Positions 34,438 to 44,848 of a stretch of 64,000 nucleotides of DNA are shown in pieces. The translations under genes were made by a program, and so were the position numbers. The notes under the pieces are model-generated. The model did no database searches, had not been told where the DNA came from, and worked only from the letters and a program-made list of their open reading frames with translations. The stretch spans positions 14,487 through 78,486 of the forward strand of contig CAZGEX010000007.1 of assembly GCA_964524385.1 (NCBI GenBank), read 5' to 3'. The DNA is from an uncultured Sangeribacter sp. Its GTDB lineage: Bacteria > Bacteroidota > Bacteroidia > Bacteroidales > Muribaculaceae. Numbering within the stretch: the first letter of the stretch is position 1; each line of letters starts with the position of its first letter.

Positions 34438-35916
34438 ATGGAAGAAAAAAAAGCAAAACGACCAAGAATCGGTGCTACATTAAGTGCTTCTGCATCTGAA
34501 AATGGCGAAGGGGAAACTCGCTACGAAAAAGTAAATTATCCTGCAGAACGTGCAGCACAATCGACTGAACGTCCTCAATACCGTTCAAACTACAACGACC
34601 GTCCTTACCAACCACGCCAACAACAAAACAACTATCAACGTCAAAGCGGATATAACAACAACCGATATAACAACTACGGTCAACAACAAAGCTATTATCA
34701 ACAACACCATAATTTTGAATCTCGTCAAGAGTTGTCATCTGAACAATCAGTAGCAACCGACAATATTCAATCAAACTTAAGTCAATCAGAAGGAGGCTAT
34801 ATCCCTCGTCAACAATATAACAACTACCAACAACGTCCTTATAACAACAATCGCCAAGGAGATTACAACAACTATCACAACAACCGATATAATAACTATC
34901 AGCGTCCTTACAACAATGATGGCGACATGCAAGACAATGGTTACACACCACGTCATAATCGTCAAGGAGGTTACAACAATAATCGCCAAGGAGGCTATAA
35001 TAATCGTCAAGGAGGTTACAACAATCGTCAAGGAGGTTACAACAATCGTCAAGGAGGTTACAATAACAATCGCCAAGGAGGTTATAACAATAATCGTCAA
35101 CAAAAGAACCGCAATAATGGAGACTACAATCCACAAGGAATGCGATTCACTCCACGCCCTAAAGCAGTGGAGTATGTACTTAACGACATCGATCCTAACG
35201 AACCAATTCGCTTGAACAAGTTCATGGCAAATTCCGGCGTTTGCTCTCGTCGCGAAGCTGACGAATACATTGCAGCAGGATTAGTAAAAGTCAATGGCGA
35301 AATTGTAACAGAACTCGGCACAAAAATTTCACGCTCAGATGTGGTAGAATACAATGAAAAAGTAGTAACCCCTGAACGTAAATGCTACATCCTTCTCAAT
35401 AAGCCCAAAGACTGCGTCACTACTACCGACGATCCTAACGGACGCAAAACAGTACTCGACTTAGTCAAAAATGCTTGTCAAGAAAGAATTTACCCGGTAG
35501 GACGTCTTGACCGTAACACCACAGGCGTACTTCTTCTTACCAACGACGGCGACCTCGCATCTAAATTGACTCATCCAAAATTTGTAAAGAAAAAAATCTA
35601 CCACGTTTGGACAGACAAAGACATCAGCGAAGACGATATGCAACGCATCGCCGACGGCATAGAACTTGAAGACGGCGAAATTCACGCAGATGCAATAAGC
35701 TATGTAACAGAAAAAGACCGCAACCAAGCAGGAATCGAAATTCACTCCGGACGAAATCGTATTGTTCGTCGCATTTTCGAATCACTCGGCTATCGCGTAA
35801 CAAAACTTGATCGTGTCTACTTCGCAGGATTAACTAAAAAGAACCTTCCTCGCGGAAAATGGAGATACCTATCACAAGAAGAAGTGAATTATCTTCGTCA
35901 AGGTTCATTCGAATAA
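34438..35916 (+). CDS. rluB: RluB/RsuA-family rRNA pseudouridine synthase with ~255-aa N/Q/R/G/Y-rich N-terminal extension
   Basis: S4 domain IRLNKFMANSGVCSRREADEYI and catalytic GRLDRNTTGVLLLTNDG. The N-terminus is low complexity, with six NRQGGYN(N) repeats. Confidence 0.85.
   Translation: MEEKKAKRPRIGATLSASASENGEGETRYEKVNYPAERAAQSTERPQYRSNYNDRPYQPRQQQNNYQRQSGYNNNRYNNYGQQQSYYQQHHNFESRQELSSEQSVATDNIQSNLSQSEGGYIPRQQYNNYQQRPYNNNRQGDYNNYHNNRYNNYQRPYNNDGDMQDNGYTPRHNRQGGYNNNRQGGYNNRQGGYNNRQGGYNNRQGGYNNNRQGGYNNNRQQKNRNNGDYNPQGMRFTPRPKAVEYVLNDIDPNEPIRLNKFMANSGVCSRREADEYIAAGLVKVNGEIVTELGTKISRSDVVEYNEKVVTPERKCYILLNKPKDCVTTTDDPNGRKTVLDLVKNACQERIYPVGRLDRNTTGVLLLTNDGDLASKLTHPKFVKKKIYHVWTDKDISEDDMQRIADGIELEDGEIHADAISYVTEKDRNQAGIEIHSGRNRIVRRIFESLGYRVTKLDRVYFAGLTKKNLPRGKWRYLSQEEVNYLRQGSFE
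34957..35100 (+). repeat. In-frame 21/24-bp tandem repeat inside rluB
   Basis: Six consecutive units aatcg(t/c)caaggagg(t/c)ta(t/c)aa(c/t)aa(t...) encoding NRQGGYN(N). Confidence 0.9.
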
Positions 35917-37472: not shown

Positions 37473-38405
37473 ATGACAGACAAGAAAAATAATTTTTGGT
37501 TTCACATCATCGTAATTATCGTCGTATCAATTTGGGGTACAACTTACATTTCAACATCAATCCTTCTTGATGGCGGACTTGAAGACACCTCCTCCGGCGG
37601 ACTGAAACCGATACAAATCTACACTTTACGGAGCATCATTGCCTATATCGGCTTGCTAATTGCCTGTCATAAACAAATCTTGGTCTCAAGCCTTCGCGAC
37701 GAACTGACTTTCATAGTTTTGGGACTTACAGGAGGAACTATTTACTATCTGTGTGAAAACACTGCCGTAGAACTTGGAAACACATCTAACGTTTCGCTCA
37801 TTATCTCCACCGTTCCAATAGCGACAATGCTACTGACAGCCGCAGTGCATAAGAAGAAAATTTCATCCCTGATGATAGTTGGTTCGCTGATTGCACTCAC
37901 AGGGATTACGTGTGTTATCTTAGCCGACAACAATAAATTCAGCATCGGATTTGATGCATTCAGAGGCGATTTGCTTGCCCTCGCCGCCGTTGGTTCTTGG
38001 GCCATCTATAGCGTAATCATTCCTACGATGTTCGACCGCTACTCCTCTTTGTTTGTAACTCGCAAGGTATTTTTCTATGGGATGCTGTCAGCTGTAATTA
38101 TTTTGATTGTCTCCGGTCAAGATATATTCCCTATTGAAATCATTTCTCGCCCAATTGTGGCAAGCAATCTCCTATATCTCGGATTAATCGCATCTCTTTT
38201 ATGCTTTTGGGTATTCAATATTGCAATTCAAAGAATCGGGATAGTCGTCACCAACAACTATGGCTATCTTACACCGGTAGTTACCTTTATATTTGCCATT
38301 CTAATTCTCGGGGATGAATTTAATTGGTACGGAATTATCGGAATATCCATTACTCTACTCGGATTGTGCATCGCACAACGTAACGACACAAGCCTCAAAT
38401 CCTAA
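37473..38405 (+). CDS. DMT superfamily (EamA-type) transporter
   Basis: 310 aa, about 10 TM segments, two EamA-like halves. Confidence 0.8.
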   Translation: MTDKKNNFWFHIIVIIVVSIWGTTYISTSILLDGGLEDTSSGGLKPIQIYTLRSIIAYIGLLIACHKQILVSSLRDELTFIVLGLTGGTIYYLCENTAVELGNTSNVSLIISTVPIATMLLTAAVHKKKISSLMIVGSLIALTGITCVILADNNKFSIGFDAFRGDLLALAAVGSWAIYSVIIPTMFDRYSSLFVTRKVFFYGMLSAVIILIVSGQDIFPIEIISRPIVASNLLYLGLIASLLCFWVFNIAIQRIGIVVTNNYGYLTPVVTFIFAILILGDEFNWYGIIGISITLLGLCIAQRNDTSLKS

Positions 38406-38623
38406 CCTTCTAAGTAAATCCATAAGGCATATTTTATAAATTGAACGCTTTCAAATCGTTAATTTTCAATTTAGTATCCAGAGTGTATTCAGAACAATTT
38501 TTGAAACACAAAACCACATTATCACAAATTTTAAAAGAAGCTTTCACACTGTTCTAAATATCCTTTTTTTGGTCAATATAGAACAAAAAACATAAACGCT
38601 AATCATTTATTAAAAATCTTTAT

Positions 38624-38631
38624 TATATTTG
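38624..38631 (+). promoter_or_regulatory. Candidate -7 promoter box (TATATTTG) for the RiPP operon
   Basis: TAnnTTTG match 41 nt upstream of the precursor ATG at 38672. No ATG occurs anywhere in the 266-nt gap after eamA. Confidence 0.4.
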
Positions 38632-38671
38632 CCTTAGAATATATATTTCACAACTTTTAAATAATAATATC

Positions 38672-38956
38672 ATGAGTACTAAAAAAATTTTTGACATTCC
38701 TGAATTGACAAGGGATGAGGCAGGAAAACTTTTTGGAGGATTTGTATCATTAGATCCAAGTGGAGGTGTTGACTCTTCGGGAATAAACATTCTTTGCACA
38801 AACACTAATTGTAGCTGTCCGTCCAACCCGATTTCTACATGCGGAGAAACTAATTCTCAATCATGCACATCAAACCCCTCATCTTGCACTACCAACAATG
38901 GTTGTCCCACTAACTTTATCGGTTGTTCTACAAATGTAGTTGAAGGATGCGATTAA
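38672..38956 (+). CDS. RiPP precursor peptide: double-glycine leader plus Cys/Thr/Ser/Asn-rich core
   Basis: 94 aa. Leader MSTKKIFDIPELTRDEAGKLFGG, with a second GG at residues 31-32. The core has 9 Cys and no basic residue. It lies immediately upstream of a radical-SAM/SPASM gene and a C39-peptidase ABC exporter. Confidence 0.85.
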   Translation: MSTKKIFDIPELTRDEAGKLFGGFVSLDPSGGVDSSGINILCTNTNCSCPSNPISTCGETNSQSCTSNPSSCTTNNGCPTNFIGCSTNVVEGCD

Positions 38957-38991
38957 AATTTAACTAAATTGAACTCTATAATTTTTGTGTA

Positions 38992-40281
38992 ATGAAATGG
39001 AATAAATTCATTAGTGTTATAAAACAACCCCAAAACTCGAATAACAGCTACATTATAAACTATTATAACGGGCAGTTAATTTATGTTGTTGATAAATTAG
39101 CAGAATTAGTCATAAATAATACTAACAATATAGAAAACATATTTGAAACACATCCAACATTTGCACAAGAATTATATAAAAAGGGATTCATTGTAGATAA
39201 AAATTTAGACATCCCAAAGATGTGCATTGAAAAACTGAACAACTATTATACTGACAGAAGCGAAATTCGACTCACAATTAACCCTACCTTAGACTGTAAT
39301 TTAAGATGTTGGTACTGCTACGAGGAACACAAAAACGGTACAAAAATGAGTGCAGACATAATAGAAAGCATACTCAAATATTTAGAACTCCAACTTATTT
39401 ATCCTACGAAAAAGTTGATACTCTCATTCTTTGGTGGCGAACCTTTAATTTGTTATAATGATGTAGTTCTAATATTATGCTCCAAGATTAAGGAACTTTG
39501 TACAAGAAACAACATTGAACTGATTATTTCGTTTACAACAAATGGAACATTACTAACTAAATCAAGAATTGAGAAATTACTTTCAATCCACAACAATTTA
39601 TTTTTTCAAATCCCATTTGATGGAAGTGGCGACACTCATAATCTCACAAAACATTTTAAGAACAAAAATGGGAGTTACGACTTAATTTTAAAAAACGTAA
39701 AAAGTGCAATAACACATAAAGGAGTTGAAATTAATATTAGATGCAACTATACCTTAAATAATATTGAATCATTCCGCGAATTAATTAATGAATTTAAAAC
39801 ATATACCGATTACTCTAATTTTTATTTTGATTTTCATCGAGTATGGCAAGAAAAGGAAACCTCAATTCTTAAATCTAAATTAATTGAAATCCAACAATAT
39901 ACCATTAACACTTTAAGCAAAAATCATTTATTAACAATAAAACCCACTCGATGTTATGCAGACAATTATCATAACATCATAATAAACTATGATGGAGGCA
40001 TTTACAAGTGTACTGCCAGAGATTTCAACGACCGACATATTATTGGGCATATTAACAAAAACGGTACAATTACTCAAATATTTCGTAAAATTGAAGATCG
40101 AAATTCTAAATTTATTCTTCCTTGCTGCAAAGAATGTAAAATTCTTCCTATATGTAATATCTGCGGACAAAAGAAAGATGAGTTTATTGATGGTAATTGT
40201 CCATTTATAGATAACTCCGACTATCATCACCAATTAATTTACAACTACTTACAAAAACTATTAACTAATTCTATTTTATAA
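38992..40281 (+). CDS. Radical SAM / SPASM-domain peptide maturase
   Basis: 429 aa. CNLRCWYC (Cx3Cx2C) at residues 102-109. C-terminal C-x14-GGIYKC and CCKECKILPICNIC auxiliary-cluster motifs. About 90 aa precede the core and could be a peptide-recognition element. Confidence 0.85.
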   Translation: MKWNKFISVIKQPQNSNNSYIINYYNGQLIYVVDKLAELVINNTNNIENIFETHPTFAQELYKKGFIVDKNLDIPKMCIEKLNNYYTDRSEIRLTINPTLDCNLRCWYCYEEHKNGTKMSADIIESILKYLELQLIYPTKKLILSFFGGEPLICYNDVVLILCSKIKELCTRNNIELIISFTTNGTLLTKSRIEKLLSIHNNLFFQIPFDGSGDTHNLTKHFKNKNGSYDLILKNVKSAITHKGVEINIRCNYTLNNIESFRELINEFKTYTDYSNFYFDFHRVWQEKETSILKSKLIEIQQYTINTLSKNHLLTIKPTRCYADNYHNIIINYDGGIYKCTARDFNDRHIIGHINKNGTITQIFRKIEDRNSKFILPCCKECKILPICNICGQKKDEFIDGNCPFIDNSDYHHQLIYNYLQKLLTNSIL

Positions 40282-40284
40282 ATT

Positions 40285-42369
40285 ATGAATAGACATCTTT
40301 TATTTGTAACTACCATAATCATTTCTTTAAATGCGGTTGCAAAGTCTACCGACAATCATTCGAATGATACAACATATAAAGAATTAAAGGAATTTGTTGT
40401 AGAAGGACAATCTTCATTTATAACAGATAATGGAATGATATTTATTCCAAACAAACAAGTAAAAAATGCCTCTAATGATGCTATCTCACTCTTGAGGAAT
40501 ATGGCAATTCCTGTGCTTCAGATAGATCCATTAGGAAATTCTGTTAAAAACATTTCAAATTCTGATGTCAACATTTTCATCGATTTTCAACCTGCTACCC
40601 AACAAGAAATTTTGGGTATGCGTACAAAAGATGTAGTCCGAGTGGAATATTATGACAATCCGACAGACCCAAGATTCAAGGGTTCGAGAGCTGTTGTAAA
40701 TTTTATAATGAAGAAATATCAATATGGTGGTTATTTAAAACTAAATGCAGGACAATCATTTTTTTATAATGCCGGTGACTATCGTCTGTATTCAAAAATC
40801 AGTCATAAACGAATGACATACGACATTTCGTTAGGAGCAAAATATGCCATAGACAACGGTAAAAGAGTGTCTTCTCTTCACAACTATCATTTTGTTGATG
40901 ATTTTACCGAAAAATACACAATTCAAAGAATATCTGAAGGGGAGGGGAGGGATAAATCCAACACTGCATACGCATCTTTTAGAGCGAGATACTCTACCAA
41001 TAAAATATTAATATCCAACGAAATAGGCTTAACCGGGAACAAAAAGCCCTACTCTTTTATCAATGGGGAAGTCGCTTTTAACTCACTGCCATACAGCGAT
41101 TTCAACAACAACAATACATCTCAATCACTCTCCCCATATTTTAGCGGTAATTACTTTTTTGTTCTATCTAACAGAAGTACATTAAGTGCATCCGTAAACT
41201 TCTCTTACTCGAGAAACAAATCATGGCAAAACTACATTTCCGGTAAATCCGAACCTATTGTCAACAATTCTGACGAACACGTATATTCGCCTAACATTTC
41301 CATCAATTATAACTATAATCTCGGACATAACAATTCTTTTAACCTTGATATTTGGAGTGCAAATAATATTTACAAAAGCGACTATCGCGGATCTTTTGAA
41401 GGCAAACAGTCATTCATCACAAACGATAATTTAATAATCCCATCTTACACTCACAGAATTGGAAATAAAATAAATTTATATGCACGATTAGGACTGCTTG
41501 TTAGTACATTTGACGTAAACGGCAACAAATACTCTCAACTCAACCCACGCATAGGAGCACAACTATCATACACTATTAACAATAAAAATAACCTAAATTT
41601 TCAATTTTGGTTAGCAAGTTCAAATGTACCATTTTCATACATCAATGATGTACTTATGCAAGTCAACGAAATTGAATGGAAACAAGGGAACAATAGTCTT
41701 AAAGGTATGCCATGGTATATGACTACATTAGCCTATACATGGTTGCCAACAAATAAGTTTAGTCTTGCCACATCTTCTTATTTTGAATGCTACACAAATA
41801 AATTTATGCCTGTCTATAATCAATTCGACGACCATATGATTGTCAAATACATCAATAAAGGCGGATGGATAAGATTACGCGAAACCATACAAGCTACCTA
41901 CCGTCCAATAAAAGAAATCACTCTATCCGGATGGTGCCAATATGGCAACTATTTCTGTTACGATGGGAACTATGCAAGAGTTTCAAAAATAATGGGAGGA
42001 CTTAATGCCACCGGCTATTGGAAAAACTTTAGTCTCAATTTATTTTATAGGACTGAAATAACAGATCTAAGTACCCGCTCGGAAAAAGTAACCGTTCCTC
42101 ATCAATACGGATTAGTACTAAGTTACGGCAATTCAAATTGGTGGGCACAACTTAGTGTAATCAACATATTTGATTCTCAAAATTACCGCAATACAATTAT
42201 CGATGTTCCTAATTTTAATTCGAACGAAACCATCTACAGTAATTCAGGAGGGCGAAGCATCGGACTTTCTATTAGCTACACATTTGATTTTGGAAAGAAA
42301 ATAAATCATAGCGACGAATTAAAAGCCCCATCTGAAAACAAATCGGCTATCATGAAAGTAGCAGAATAA
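40285..42369 (+). CDS. Outer-membrane beta-barrel protein (TonB-dependent-receptor-like / OMP_b-brl_3-like)
   Basis: 694 aa. Signal peptide, plug-like N-region (KELKEFVVEGQS...VVRVEYYDNP) and alternating beta-strand pattern ending in SISYTFDF, then a 25-aa tail. Confidence 0.7.
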   Translation: MNRHLLFVTTIIISLNAVAKSTDNHSNDTTYKELKEFVVEGQSSFITDNGMIFIPNKQVKNASNDAISLLRNMAIPVLQIDPLGNSVKNISNSDVNIFIDFQPATQQEILGMRTKDVVRVEYYDNPTDPRFKGSRAVVNFIMKKYQYGGYLKLNAGQSFFYNAGDYRLYSKISHKRMTYDISLGAKYAIDNGKRVSSLHNYHFVDDFTEKYTIQRISEGEGRDKSNTAYASFRARYSTNKILISNEIGLTGNKKPYSFINGEVAFNSLPYSDFNNNNTSQSLSPYFSGNYFFVLSNRSTLSASVNFSYSRNKSWQNYISGKSEPIVNNSDEHVYSPNISINYNYNLGHNNSFNLDIWSANNIYKSDYRGSFEGKQSFITNDNLIIPSYTHRIGNKINLYARLGLLVSTFDVNGNKYSQLNPRIGAQLSYTINNKNNLNFQFWLASSNVPFSYINDVLMQVNEIEWKQGNNSLKGMPWYMTTLAYTWLPTNKFSLATSSYFECYTNKFMPVYNQFDDHMIVKYINKGGWIRLRETIQATYRPIKEITLSGWCQYGNYFCYDGNYARVSKIMGGLNATGYWKNFSLNLFYRTEITDLSTRSEKVTVPHQYGLVLSYGNSNWWAQLSVINIFDSQNYRNTIIDVPNFNSNETIYSNSGGRSIGLSISYTFDFGKKINHSDELKAPSENKSAIMKVAE

Positions 42370-42374
42370 AGACA

Positions 42375-44570
42375 ATGAAAAAGTTTACCTTTGTCAAACA
42401 AAAAGACTCGATGCAATGTGGTGTTGCTTGCTTGAAAATGATATGTCAACATTATGGTAAAAACATAAATATCGACTATCTTGAAAATCTATGCAATACT
42501 ACAATTCAAGGTGTGTCAATACTTAATTTATGTGACACAGCCGAACACATCGGATTTCATACTATTGCCGGACGTCTAACTATTCAGCAACTCATTGAAT
42601 CGACTAAACCGGTTGTCTTACATTGGCATCAAAATCATTTTGTCGTACTATATCGAGTGACCGGACAAGGTAAAAAATTCTATATTGCAGACCCGGGAAT
42701 AGGACTAATAAAATATTCACGCCACGATTTCGAAAAAGCGTGGATAAGTTCTAATACCAATAATGAGGATAGAGGTATTGCTCTACTATTACAACCTACC
42801 CCTTCATTTTTCTCTCACGACTTCAATCTTGAAAAGGTCGAAACACGATCATTCCGCTTTTTGTTTGGATACATCAAACAATATAAGCATTATTTTAGCC
42901 AAATTATTCTCGGGCTACTTATAGGTAGTGTTTTGCAATTAGTTTTCCCTTTTCTAACACAGTCTATTGTGGATGTCGGCATATTTGATAACGATATTAA
43001 CTTCATCCTACTTGTTCTTGTCGCACAACTTATGCTCACGCTTGGTTATGCATCTGTAGGATTCATACGTCGGTGGATATTACTACATGTCGGCATCAGA
43101 ATAAACATCTCATTATTAAGCGATTTTTTCATAAAATTACTAAAGCTCCCGATGAATTTTTTCGACACAAAATTAATGGGAGACATAATGCAAAGAATGA
43201 ATGATCACCAACGAATTCAAACCTTTCTTACATCATCAGTATTGGAAATCACTTTTTCAATAATTAGCTTTATTGTATTAGGCATTGTACTTTTCTTTTA
43301 TAATCCGATTATATTTAGCATCTTAATTCTCGAGAGCATTCTATACGCAATTTGGACTATTCATTTTATGTCAAGACGAAAAGTACTTGACTATATGCTA
43401 TTTGAAAAAAGAGCCAAAAACAGCAATAACACATATCAGTTCATTACATCTATGCAAGAAATAAAACTTCAAGATTGTGAACGTCGGCGTCGTTGGGAAT
43501 GGGAAGATGTACAAGCTGATATGTTTGAAGTTGACATTAAATTATTAAAATTACAACAAACACAAGAAGCCGGAAGTCTGCTTATTAACGAAATTAAAAA
43601 TATTGTTATTACTATATTATCCGCTATAGCTGTAATAGATGGGGAAATGACATTGGGGATGATGCTTGCCGTGCAATATATAATAGGACAACTTAATACC
43701 CCTGTAAAACAACTTATGAATTTCCTATATTCACTCCAAGATGTAAAAATAAGCCTTGAACGAATTAATGACATTCAAGGACAGACAGAAGAAGATGCCA
43801 AATATGGTAATAACACAGATTTTTCAAGAGGTGGTGACATCTGCCTTTCTAATATCTCATTTCGCTATGACCTTTCACTCAGAAAGAATATACTGAACAA
43901 TATTTCCATAATAATACCTGAGGGTAAAGTTACAGCAATAGTAGGAGCAAGTGGAAGTGGCAAAAGCACTTTATTAAAATTAATTCTTGGTTTCTACCCG
44001 GCTACTTCAGGCAACATTACAATAGGCGGTATAAATATTTTAGAATATAACATACGTTGGTGGCGACGACAATGCGGTGTTGTGATGCAAGATGGTGTTA
44101 TATTTTCCGAATCAATAGCACATAATATTGCAGTAAACGACGAGGAAATTGATATGCATCGTCTAGAAGAAGCCGCACAAATGGCCGGCATCACAGATTT
44201 CATAAATTCACTACCTCTAAAATATAACACTATAATAGGAAGAGATGGAATTGGAATAAGTCAAGGTCAACGACAACGTATATTAATAGCAAGAGCAATC
44301 TATAAGCATCCTAAATACATATTTCTGGATGAAGCAACAAATTCTCTTGATGCTAACAATGAACGTCGAATTACTGAAAATCTTGAAAATTTCTATAAAC
44401 ACAGAACCGTCTTTATCATAGCACATCGTCTTAGCACAGTAAAAAAAGCCGATCAAATTATCGTACTTGACAACGGAGAAGTAATTGAAACCGGCAATCA
44501 TAACCAATTAATATCAAAAAAGGGTAAATACTTTCATTTAGTCAAAGACCAACTTGAATTAGAAGCATGA
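42375..44570 (+). CDS. Peptidase-C39-domain ABC transporter (bacteriocin-processing exporter, PCAT type)
   Basis: 731 aa. C39 motifs QCGVACLKM (Cys), HFVVLY (His) and IADPG (Asp). Six-TM domain. Walker A GASGSGKST, signature LSQGQRQR, Walker B IFLDEATNSLD. Confidence 0.9.
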   Translation: MKKFTFVKQKDSMQCGVACLKMICQHYGKNINIDYLENLCNTTIQGVSILNLCDTAEHIGFHTIAGRLTIQQLIESTKPVVLHWHQNHFVVLYRVTGQGKKFYIADPGIGLIKYSRHDFEKAWISSNTNNEDRGIALLLQPTPSFFSHDFNLEKVETRSFRFLFGYIKQYKHYFSQIILGLLIGSVLQLVFPFLTQSIVDVGIFDNDINFILLVLVAQLMLTLGYASVGFIRRWILLHVGIRINISLLSDFFIKLLKLPMNFFDTKLMGDIMQRMNDHQRIQTFLTSSVLEITFSIISFIVLGIVLFFYNPIIFSILILESILYAIWTIHFMSRRKVLDYMLFEKRAKNSNNTYQFITSMQEIKLQDCERRRRWEWEDVQADMFEVDIKLLKLQQTQEAGSLLINEIKNIVITILSAIAVIDGEMTLGMMLAVQYIIGQLNTPVKQLMNFLYSLQDVKISLERINDIQGQTEEDAKYGNNTDFSRGGDICLSNISFRYDLSLRKNILNNISIIIPEGKVTAIVGASGSGKSTLLKLILGFYPATSGNITIGGINILEYNIRWWRRQCGVVMQDGVIFSESIAHNIAVNDEEIDMHRLEEAAQMAGITDFINSLPLKYNTIIGRDGIGISQGQRQRILIARAIYKHPKYIFLDEATNSLDANNERRITENLENFYKHRTVFIIAHRLSTVKKADQIIVLDNGEVIETGNHNQLISKKGKYFHLVKDQLELEA

Positions 44571-44770
44571 ACAAACAAAAAGAAAAAAATGAAATGCATA
44601 GTAGTAAGGTTCGAAACATTTTGCAACAACGTCCGATTTGGTTGGTTCGAAATGGTATCGCTATAATTTTTATAGTATTAATTATAATGCTTGCAATTGC
44701 TACTTTTATCAATTTAGATGATAATAAAACATTTATCGACAAAATCTTTATTCATAGCCATTTACTCTGA
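44567..44770 (+). pseudogene. Truncated HlyD-family periplasmic adaptor (N-terminal 67 aa only)
   Basis: ATGA overlap with the ABC gene. The sequence SKVRNILQQRPIWLVRNGIAIIFIVLIIMLAIATFI matches the N-terminal TM anchor of Bacteroidetes HlyD adaptors, but the ORF stops after 67 aa. Only 78 nt remain before the convergent GSCFA gene. Confidence 0.55.
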
Positions 44771-44848
44771 CGCCAATGAATTTTCACATTGCATATATTT
44801 TAAAACGACATACAATGGCGACTTTATAATAATCATTAAAATTGCTTT

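Follow-up and report, generated by a model that had tools for sequence, protein, structure and literature searches.

We analyzed a radical S-adenosylmethionine (rSAM) enzyme and its neighboring genes in a 64,000-nucleotide stretch of DNA from an uncultured Sangeribacter sp. of the Muribaculaceae (assembly GCA_964524385.1, contig CAZGEX010000007.1, positions 14,487 to 78,486), hereafter the window. The open reading frame (ORF) list of the window places five closely packed genes on the plus strand between 38.6 and 44.8 kb (Table 1), with the gene for a precursor peptide ending 35 nucleotides 5′ of the rSAM gene. The order of peptide, rSAM enzyme, outer-membrane protein (OMP), C39 peptidase-domain ABC exporter (PCAT) and small transmembrane protein recurs in the close relatives examined. 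A preliminary description of this DNA, made from the letters alone, had called the enzyme a single tailoring enzyme, which holds for the conserved five-gene module. Our overall explanation, which we consider fairly probable, is that it is a three-domain maturase of a peptide that is synthesized ribosomally and modified post-translationally (RiPP) and that its five-gene Bacteroidales operon encodes no other tailoring enzyme.

Table 1. Features of the five-gene operon, with positions counted from the first letter of the window
Feature	Position	Strand	Basis or remark
Promoter-like element TATATTTG	38625..38632	+	Letters read directly; about 40 nucleotides 5′ of the precursor ATG
Precursor peptide, 94 amino acids	38672-38956	+	ORF list; homologous peptides directly 5′ of the rSAM gene in relatives
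rSAM enzyme, 429 amino acids	38992-40281	+	ORF list, Pfam, AlphaFold2, Foldseek
rSAM residues 1-88: β3α3 domain (putative RiPP recognition element, RRE, 1-66) and linker helix 74-87	38992..39255	+	AlphaFold2, hhalign
rSAM residues 89-315: partial TIM barrel with C102/C106/C109 (nucleotides 39295-39318) and GGE 148-150	39256..39936	+	PF04055, Foldseek, HMMER
rSAM residues 316-429: SPASM domain, seven invariant Cys	39937..40281	+	Conservation in 82/82 relatives; sub-threshold Pfam match
694-amino-acid protein in the operon's OMP position	40285..42369	+	Operon position
PCAT, 731 amino acids	42375..44570	+	Pfam Peptidase_C39 (113 bits), ABC_membrane, ABC_tran
67-amino-acid protein with a single transmembrane helix, overlapping the PCAT stop codon	44567..44770	+	ORF list; conserved post-PCAT family

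To examine the fold, we ran AlphaFold2 on the enzyme alone, a check that the preliminary description had called for. Using a 42-sequence alignment, this yielded a model of high confidence (pLDDT 92.3, pTM 0.88) with a β3α3 domain, a barrel and a SPASM domain. The predicted elements are β-strands at residues 7–11, 18–23 and 28–33, α-helices at 34–42, 47–53 and 55–63, a linker helix at 74–87, a β/α barrel from residue 91 and a C-terminal β-hairpin/helix domain bearing seven Cys. We then performed Foldseek against the PDB, in which the top match was CteB (5WHY/5WGG; E = 3 × 10−15, TM-score 0.67–0.69); with 440–470 aligned columns, this match takes in the N-terminal domain. Next came anSME (8 × 10−15, core and SPASM domain only), TigE (2 × 10−12), ChlB, SkfB (2 × 10−11, TM-score 0.47) and SuiB (3 × 10−11). 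A hidden Markov model profile of the family searched against PDB sequences also found CteB (4 × 10−26), TigE (aligned from profile position 3) and SkfB. With the single protein as phmmer query, BtrN alone was returned (1 × 10−3), and CteB was reached only with the family profile.

Conservation was assessed in two sets, 42 database homologs (31–51% identity) and 82 ORFs from genomic loci (approximately 30–51% identity). The reported CNLRCWYC motif at residues 102–109 is present as C102-x3-C106-x2-C109 and is kept in all 82 relatives; FFGGEP at residues 146–151, which holds the GGE SAM-binding motif, is invariant in the 42-homolog alignment, and the Radical_SAM model PF04055 scores 55.6 bits, above its gathering threshold (GA) of 29.5. 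The Cx3Cx2C motif had been thought to lie unusually far from the N-terminus. It does not, a position near residue 100 being typical of RiPP rSAM maturases: the equivalent motif of CteB falls at about residue 104 in the HMMER alignment, and the motif starts at residue 90–110 in 73 of the 82 relatives, so that the N-terminal extension of approximately 90 amino acids is found family-wide.

Both SPASM elements were recovered at the C-terminus, for which the subfamily has a pattern of seven or eight Cys, C-x9-15-G-x4-C ... C-x2-C-x5-C-x3-C ... C. The first is present, though its spacing is x13 (C321-x13-G335-x4-C340) and the x14 given earlier was one too many. The second, C379-x2-C382-x5-C388-x2-C391 followed by x11-C403, is near the consensus as claimed; the pair of adjacent Cys is C378-C379, and the stretch reads C378-C379-K-E-C382-KILPI-C388-NI-C391. 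Conservation of the C-terminal Cys among homologs, which had been named as a test, was complete for C321, C340, C379, C382, C388, C391 and C403 (82/82 each), and together with C102, C106 and C109 these make ten Cys that are 100% kept in both sets. G335 is likewise invariant in the 42-homolog alignment, and the less conserved Cys are C170 (72/82), C251 (38/82) and C378 (2/82). The CX2C at the last SPASM spacing is real but is not peculiar to this enzyme, since relatives have x2 in 31 cases, the canonical x3 in 49 and x4 in 2; we rejected it as a distinguishing anomaly and regard it as a subclade trait within a family range of x2–x4. The Pfam SPASM model PF13186 scored 18.4 bits on the C-terminal 120 amino acids (E = 0.0026), below its GA of 21.5. 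Among relatives, one (P0007) passes at 24.4 bits and another (P0002) has no match to this model, and we take the sub-threshold score to reflect borderline sensitivity of the sequence model, outweighed by the match of the predicted fold. The rSAM enzyme with SPASM-like motifs that was first described is thus borne out, with a full SPASM domain, by PF04055, the seven invariant C-terminal Cys and the Foldseek matches.

Following the CX2CX5CX3C rule for the assignment of cluster ligands (PMC10878394), the first auxiliary cluster (AuxI) would be held by C321, C340 and C391 and the second (AuxII) by C379, C382, C388 and C403. C251 was considered as a fourth AuxI ligand and rejected, given its conservation in fewer than half of the relatives. 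Seven invariant SPASM Cys with no conserved eighth are consistent with an AuxI that has an open site. In its architecture, the enzyme is a canonical RRE-rSAM-SPASM RiPP maturase and ordinary for this class.

The reading of residues 1–88 rests on topology and on profile comparison. An RRE is defined by three antiparallel β-strands and three α-helices, and residues 3–85 of TigE form one (PMC10878394). The isolated N-terminal domain was predicted by AlphaFold2 as three β-strands and then three α-helices, all above a pLDDT of 90 (overall 92.1). Using hhalign, the family alignment of this domain (A2) aligned with TigE residues 9–110 over 76 columns (probability 73–77%, E = 2–3 × 10−5, score 29–30). 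When the TigE segment was shuffled 200 times, scores were 10.9 ± 2.1 with a maximum of 22.4, as compared with the real 29.2; none of the 200 shuffles reached this value (z approximately 8.7). The isolated N-terminal domains of relatives also matched the N-termini of curated maturases, namely CefB (21 of 37, best 4.5 × 10−8), TIGR04463 (17/37), FlmE/OhkG (16/37) and Clo7bot (5/37), and the full-length alignment to the geopeptide model (TIGR04280) begins at residue 1. Within the domain, H54 is invariant and P55, N23, L36, F66 and E74 are near-invariant in the 42 homologs. H54 and P55 sit directly before α3 (residues 55–63), the helix that forms one wall of the canonical leader groove (PMC10878394). 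By homology and topology, the domain appears to be an RRE-type winged helix-turn-helix, and we infer that it would bind the leader.

We next compared the enzyme with curated families. The nearest NCBIfam models (110–134 bits) were TIGR04463, geopeptide (TIGR04280), CefB (NF038107), PapB (NF047865), Clo7bot (TIGR04334), FlmE/OhkG (NF052473) and CcpM, every one a maturase of Cys-rich peptides or of thioethers. All scores fell short of the curated cutoffs (134 against 525 bits for TIGR04463, 118 against 340 for PapB, 122 against 600 for CefB and 117 against 600 for Clo7bot). Being three to five times under these cutoffs, the enzyme family is a separate one with no curated model; as judged from these profile scores, it is related to the PapB, TIGR04463, CefB and Clo7bot families and a member of none. 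Database names for the relatives are just “radical SAM protein” or “radical SAM/SPASM domain-containing protein.”

The adjacent peptide has a double-glycine leader that ends in ...ELTRDEAGKLFGG and a core of 71 amino acids. The nine-Cys substrate that had been described is confirmed, with all nine Cys following the ...GKLFGG leader end, arranged as repeated [S/T]-N-x(1-4)-C units. The precursor matched nothing in Pfam or NCBIfam even at E ≤ 10. Running Tandem Repeats Finder on the precursor gene gave no DNA-level repeats in the coding region, and the nine peptide units are therefore not recent duplications. Cys-rich peptides with double-glycine leaders lie immediately 5′ of the rSAM gene in relatives from Prevotella, Segatella, Muribaculaceae, Alistipes, Phocaeicola and Saprospiraceae. 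Their leaders share the pattern L-[S/T]-x-D-E-x-G-x-L-x-G-G-F, and the typical core has four Cys in the pattern N-x-N-C ... [T/D]-N-x-N-C-x(1-3)-C-x2-C. The window peptide and that of the closest relative (locus L001, rSAM 51% identical) are expanded nine-Cys versions.

To quantify the pairing of Asn and Cys, we compared 30 non-identical cores holding 143 Cys with composition-preserving shuffles. Asn stood at position −3 of 71 of the 143 Cys as compared with 17.3 expected, a 4.1-fold enrichment reached by none of 2000 shuffles, and at position −1 of 52. In the window core, Asn lies within −5 to −3 of all nine Cys (0/5000 shuffles) and at exactly −3 of four.

Several further observations concern the precursors of relatives. 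Many four-Cys cores share a G-G-G-W-[FGV]-D-[TS]-N-T-N-C segment with an invariant-looking Trp (for example L007 2448-2684, L009 6720-6914, L012 6696-6923 and L015 1445-1666), a segment that is absent from the window peptide; another modification may take place there, or the segment may have a structural part in the mature product. More distant rSAM relatives (approximately 33–35% identity) have a second precursor type, with a leader of the form ...FIESLP...S(T/A)LLSTNM...GG and Cys/Asn-rich cores with six to nine Cys (L047 1985-2293, L051 6567-6836, L058 6478-6873, L068 6507-6800, L072 6550-6849, L082 6532-6792 and L084 234-518). With two leader types among relatives, a single clade of enzymes therefore handles leaders of two families or more. 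Tandem paralogous genes for double-glycine-leader precursors also occur 5′ of a single rSAM gene, with six in a Saprospiraceae metagenome-assembled genome (L061 5264-6795) and three in one of Bacteroidota (L056 5801-6763), which suggests that one enzyme matures several peptide variants.

Given its place beside a conserved Cys-rich peptide, the enzyme is very likely a peptide maturase acting on that peptide. By analogy with characterized relatives, it also seems reasonably likely to form thioethers: its SPASM domain has seven invariant Cys and no eighth, CteB is its closest match, and the nearest curated families act on Cys-rich peptides. In this class of enzymes, the RRE holds the leader, SAM is cleaved to the 5′-deoxyadenosyl radical, hydrogen abstraction is followed by C-S coupling, and the electron exits via the auxiliary clusters (PMC8326336, PMC9389541, PMC10878394). 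AuxI is typically held by three Cys plus another Cys or the substrate (PMC10878394), and in CteB its open site faces the substrate and binds a substrate Cys (PMC8326336). On this model, the N-terminal domain would bind the double-glycine leader in its β3/α3 groove, and the Cys-rich core would thread into the barrel, where the thiolate of a core Cys could ligate the open iron of AuxI, itself held by the three protein Cys named above. Reductive cleavage of SAM at the C102/C106/C109 cluster would generate the 5′-deoxyadenosyl radical, which would take a hydrogen atom from the acceptor residue; the carbon radical and the coordinated sulfur would then form the thioether, with the electron leaving via AuxI and AuxII. 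The cycle may be repeated for up to nine Cys, and the enzyme is probably an iterative thioether synthase; for one enzyme acting at many sites, freyrasin with its six thioethers is a precedent (PMC8326336). The acceptor that we favor, tentatively and at somewhat less than even chances, is the Cβ of Asn, because the Asn signature at −3 matches that of NxxcA. An Asn three to five residues N-terminal of each Cys would be joined to it in an NxxC-type Cβ thioether, giving a string of small rings. The PCAT would presumably cleave the leader after G23 and export the product, and the OMP and the small transmembrane protein may complete its passage.

Three other explanations deserve weight, the first of which concerns the N-terminal domain. 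The preliminary description had proposed a fused RRE; its β3α3 topology and its hhalign homology stand, and no significant match was returned by Foldseek, by Pfam for PqqD or by HMMER against the PDB. These negative results, together with the points on chemistry given in the next paragraph, weigh against our explanation. The best E value for the isolated domain in Foldseek was 0.3, with TM-scores to known RREs of 0.37–0.43; when the N-terminal domains of 37 members were run against Pfam at E ≤ 10, neither PqqD (PF05402) nor any other RRE family was found; the HMMER profile of the domain against all PDB sequences gave chance-level matches, with TigE and CteB not found; and the window enzyme's own domain had no match at E ≤ 1 to the four maturase models that its relatives' domains hit. 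The domain could thus be a structural cap or dimerization module, with the leader recognized by the barrel, the SPASM domain or the PCAT only, and TigE and SkfB each have their RRE groove filled by their own C-terminal tail (PMC10878394). We nonetheless find this explanation improbable. The order of the β3α3 elements fits the definition of an RRE, the alignment to the crystallographic TigE RRE lies far above the shuffles, and the domain is kept family-wide, with its invariant His directly before α3. Known RREs were also among the top 50 Foldseek matches of the isolated domain, including TbiB1 (ranks 1, 4 and 6), LynD (TM-score 0.40–0.43), McbB and CteB. Even one known RRE fits poorly on another, at 2–12 Å among solved structures (TigE on SuiB at 12 Å, on SkfB at 6 Å; PMC10878394), and low structural scores are therefore, in our view, what this fold usually gives.

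The other two explanations concern the product. As all NCBIfam scores are far under their cutoffs, no function can be transferred from an equivalog, and searches of the literature on Bacteroidales rSAM RiPPs, CefB, Clo7bot, CcpM and TIGR04463 found no chemical characterization of the family and nothing relevant other than a bioinformatic survey of 2023 (the OhkA/FlmA paper deals with peptide arginases). The enrichment of Asn might stem from recognition or from the way the product folds and not from crosslinking at that residue. Nor can Asn be the acceptor for all Cys, because in typical four-Cys cores an Asn at −3 is often missing for Cys three and four. A sactisynthase of the same architecture and mechanism would join the Cys sulfur to the Cα of an acceptor (a sactionine), leaving Asn for recognition or folding. 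The RRE-rSAM-SPASM/twitch layout is common to sactisynthases, SkfB is among both the Foldseek and the profile matches, a Cys-rich substrate with a double-glycine leader suits bacteriocin-like sactipeptides, and Cα is not distinguishable from Cβ or Cγ regiochemistry by sequence. We judge it unlikely all the same, as the ranthipeptide synthase CteB is closer than SkfB (E values of 3 × 10−15 and 2 × 10−11; TM-scores of 0.68 and 0.47) and one of the best NCBIfam matches is to PapB, which makes Cβ thioethers. In known sactipeptides, moreover, donor Cys lie N-terminal to distant acceptors and form hairpins, and the short, local N-x2-4-C periodicity here looks more like the small rings of NxxC and CxxxD peptides. 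The enzyme might instead perform epimerization, C-C or C-O crosslinking or oxidation of Cys or Ser, with the Cys forming disulfides or binding metal after export. Enzymes of nearly identical fold do make other products (cyclopropylglycine by TigE, Lys-Trp C-C links by SuiB, formylglycine by Cys/Ser oxidation in anSME), the conserved G-W-x-D in many four-Cys cores is a possible C-C crosslink site, and export leads to an oxidizing compartment in which disulfides can form. The window core, however, has no Trp and two Phe as its sole aromatics, a Cys with an upstream Asn is the feature common to every core, every one of the nearest curated families acts on Cys-rich peptides, and seven rather than eight SPASM Cys leave AuxI open, as in thiolate-binding enzymes. 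The GYW motif of TigE-type enzymes is absent from all 429 residues, on which ground we rejected a cyclopropyl synthase of the TvgB/TigE type, and non-thioether chemistry as a whole seems to us a minor prospect.

Turning to the remainder of the operon, we take TATATTTG to be a candidate promoter that fits the Bacteroidetes-type −7 consensus TAnnTTTG. GC content is 0.31–0.34 over the operon (window 38000–44800) as compared with 0.37–0.42 in the flanks, which hold housekeeping and transporter genes, including an EamA transporter (Pfam/NCBIfam) and an asparagine-tRNA ligase-like gene (translations inspected). At L001, the operon has different neighbors, a hexapeptide-repeat protein and PorZ. The drop in GC and the different neighbors at L001 suggest that the five-gene operon is a horizontally mobile cassette. 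NCBIfam models for bacteriocin exporters match the PCAT with high scores, yet under their cutoffs. In relatives' operons, the OMP position is held by outer-membrane β-barrel proteins (PF14905). The 694-amino-acid protein found there in the window matches no model of Pfam or NCBIfam, even with the cutoff set at E ≤ 10, and is 56% identical to its counterpart at L001. It was rejected as a member of OMP_b-brl_3, having no BLASTP similarity to the PF14905 barrel in the same operon position at L002, and it is a divergent, unannotated family tied to the nine-Cys peptide subclade.

The 67-amino-acid protein has no Pfam match even at E ≤ 10. Small proteins with a single transmembrane helix (48–170 amino acids) also occur directly behind the PCAT, with frequent overlap of the PCAT stop codon, in relatives of several genera (L001 6043-6258, L002 11821-12024, L004 5075-5581, L009 12846-13325, L010 9857-10060, L012 12592-12753 and L021 10497-10667). 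They share the N-terminus ...ELRSEKVRxIIGxxPxxLVRxG, followed by the transmembrane helix, and we take this N-terminus to resemble HlyD-type membrane fusion proteins (MFPs) with the periplasmic domains missing. Such proteins may account for the missing MFP in Bacteroidales RiPP clusters (PMC10352776). Elsewhere in the window, a 492-amino-acid ORF (34438-35916, plus strand) has an N-terminal low-complexity extension of approximately 250 amino acids rich in Q, N, Y and G, in which ...NNRQGGYNN... is repeated about seven times. Its C-terminal half looks to us like an S4-domain pseudouridine synthase of the RluB/RsuA type, by its GRLD motif.

To determine how widely the family is distributed, we performed a homolog search, in which 3,688 protein clusters passed E ≤ 0.001; species-representative genomes held at least 579 loci. 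The family has its main presence in Bacteroidales of the gut, mouth and rumen (Prevotella, Segatella salivae, Muribaculaceae, Alistipes, Phocaeicola sartorii, Bacteroides and Tannerellaceae) and is also found in Saprospiraceae. Nearly all loci are labeled Bacteroidota. One 39%-identical homolog lies on a contig labeled Flexilinea sp. of the Chloroflexota (L011, CAVJZJ010000009.1), which could be due to mis-binning or horizontal transfer. Culturable carriers include Segatella salivae DSM 15606, Prevotella falsenii DSM 22864, Phocaeicola sartorii DSM 21941 and Paraprevotella xylaniphila YIT 11841. With these carriers and a defined substrate motif (Asn three residues before Cys), the chemistry is directly testable. 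Modified peptides from Bacteroidales have hardly been characterized (PMC10352776). If Asn-Cys thioethers are indeed formed, a modification known from one streptococcal peptide would extend to a major group of the microbiome, and an iterative, repeat-tolerant crosslinking enzyme would be gained. The interest lies in the substrate motif and its prevalence in the microbiome and not in the layout of the enzyme, and we regard the system as a moderate lead for genome mining. More speculatively, and with the odds rather against it, the family may represent an undescribed RiPP class, in which one RRE-rSAM-SPASM enzyme would place strings of small Asn-Cβ-Cys thioether rings on N-x-N-C and [S/T]N-x(1-4)-C units (nine in the window, two to four typically), with export from the Gram-negative cell by an unusual route dedicated to the peptide, made up of the PCAT, a mini MFP-like protein of 50–170 amino acids and an OMP barrel encoded in the operon.

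Clusters of this general kind are known in Bacteroidales. A bioinformatic survey of rSAM-PCAT-OMP RiPP clusters in this order (Front Microbiol 2023; PMC10352776) described double-glycine-motif precursors, rSAM/SPASM enzymes, PCATs and OMPs with no recognizable full-length MFP, as seen here, and rSAM-only regions were the commonest type in Prevotellaceae, with 152 regions in 195 genomes (PMC10352776). The cluster treated in detail there differs in that it contains a YcaO enzyme and comes from Porphyromonas, and the survey may already cover this enzyme family or the N-x-N-C motif. The nearest curated families are uncharacterized, and several are by name paired with Cys-rich peptides; for TIGR04463, CefB, FlmE/OhkG and Clo7bot, the homology reaches into the N-terminal domain, as seen with relatives' domains. 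TigE, a cyclopropylglycine synthase (8VPO), is similar in its RRE (residues 3–85), which aligns with the N-terminal domain, in its seven-Cys SPASM domain and in the iterative modification of a repetitive core, which for the window enzyme we infer. It differs in having a GYW motif, the Tyr of which ligates AuxI (PMC10878394), and in a substrate with no Cys on which C-C bonds are formed.

Among characterized enzymes, CteB, the thermocellin/SCIFF ranthipeptide synthase, is the best match over the full length in structure and among PDB sequences. Both enzymes combine an N-terminal RRE, an rSAM barrel and a seven-Cys SPASM domain with a Cys-rich peptide, with AuxI in CteB open to a substrate Cys (PMC8326336). 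However, the two are 18% identical, the last SPASM spacing is CX2C here and CX3C in CteB, and CteA has been shown to carry one Cys-Thr Cγ link (PMC8326336), whereas up to nine sites are present here. The window peptide also has a double-glycine leader that a PCAT would process, in a Gram-negative organism. PapB of Paenibacillus polymyxa is represented by NF047865, which matches residues 95–402 of the window enzyme at 118 bits, far under the cutoff of 340. In freyrasin, six Cβ thioethers join Cys to Asp within a repetitive core (PMC8326336); its acceptor is Asp, while the conserved partner here is Asn, upstream of Cys. Finally, NxxcB of Streptococcus orisratti joins Cys23 to the Cβ of Asn20, three residues upstream (PMC8326336, PMC9389541). 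NxxcA carries a single link and belongs to a quorum-sensing-regulated operon of a Gram-positive organism, in contrast to the N-x-N-C and [ST]N-x(1-4)-C units of variable spacing, in up to nine copies, found here. The likeness to NxxcB and NxxcA is in the substrate motif, with Asn at −3 of 50% of the Cys in the cores of this enzyme family.

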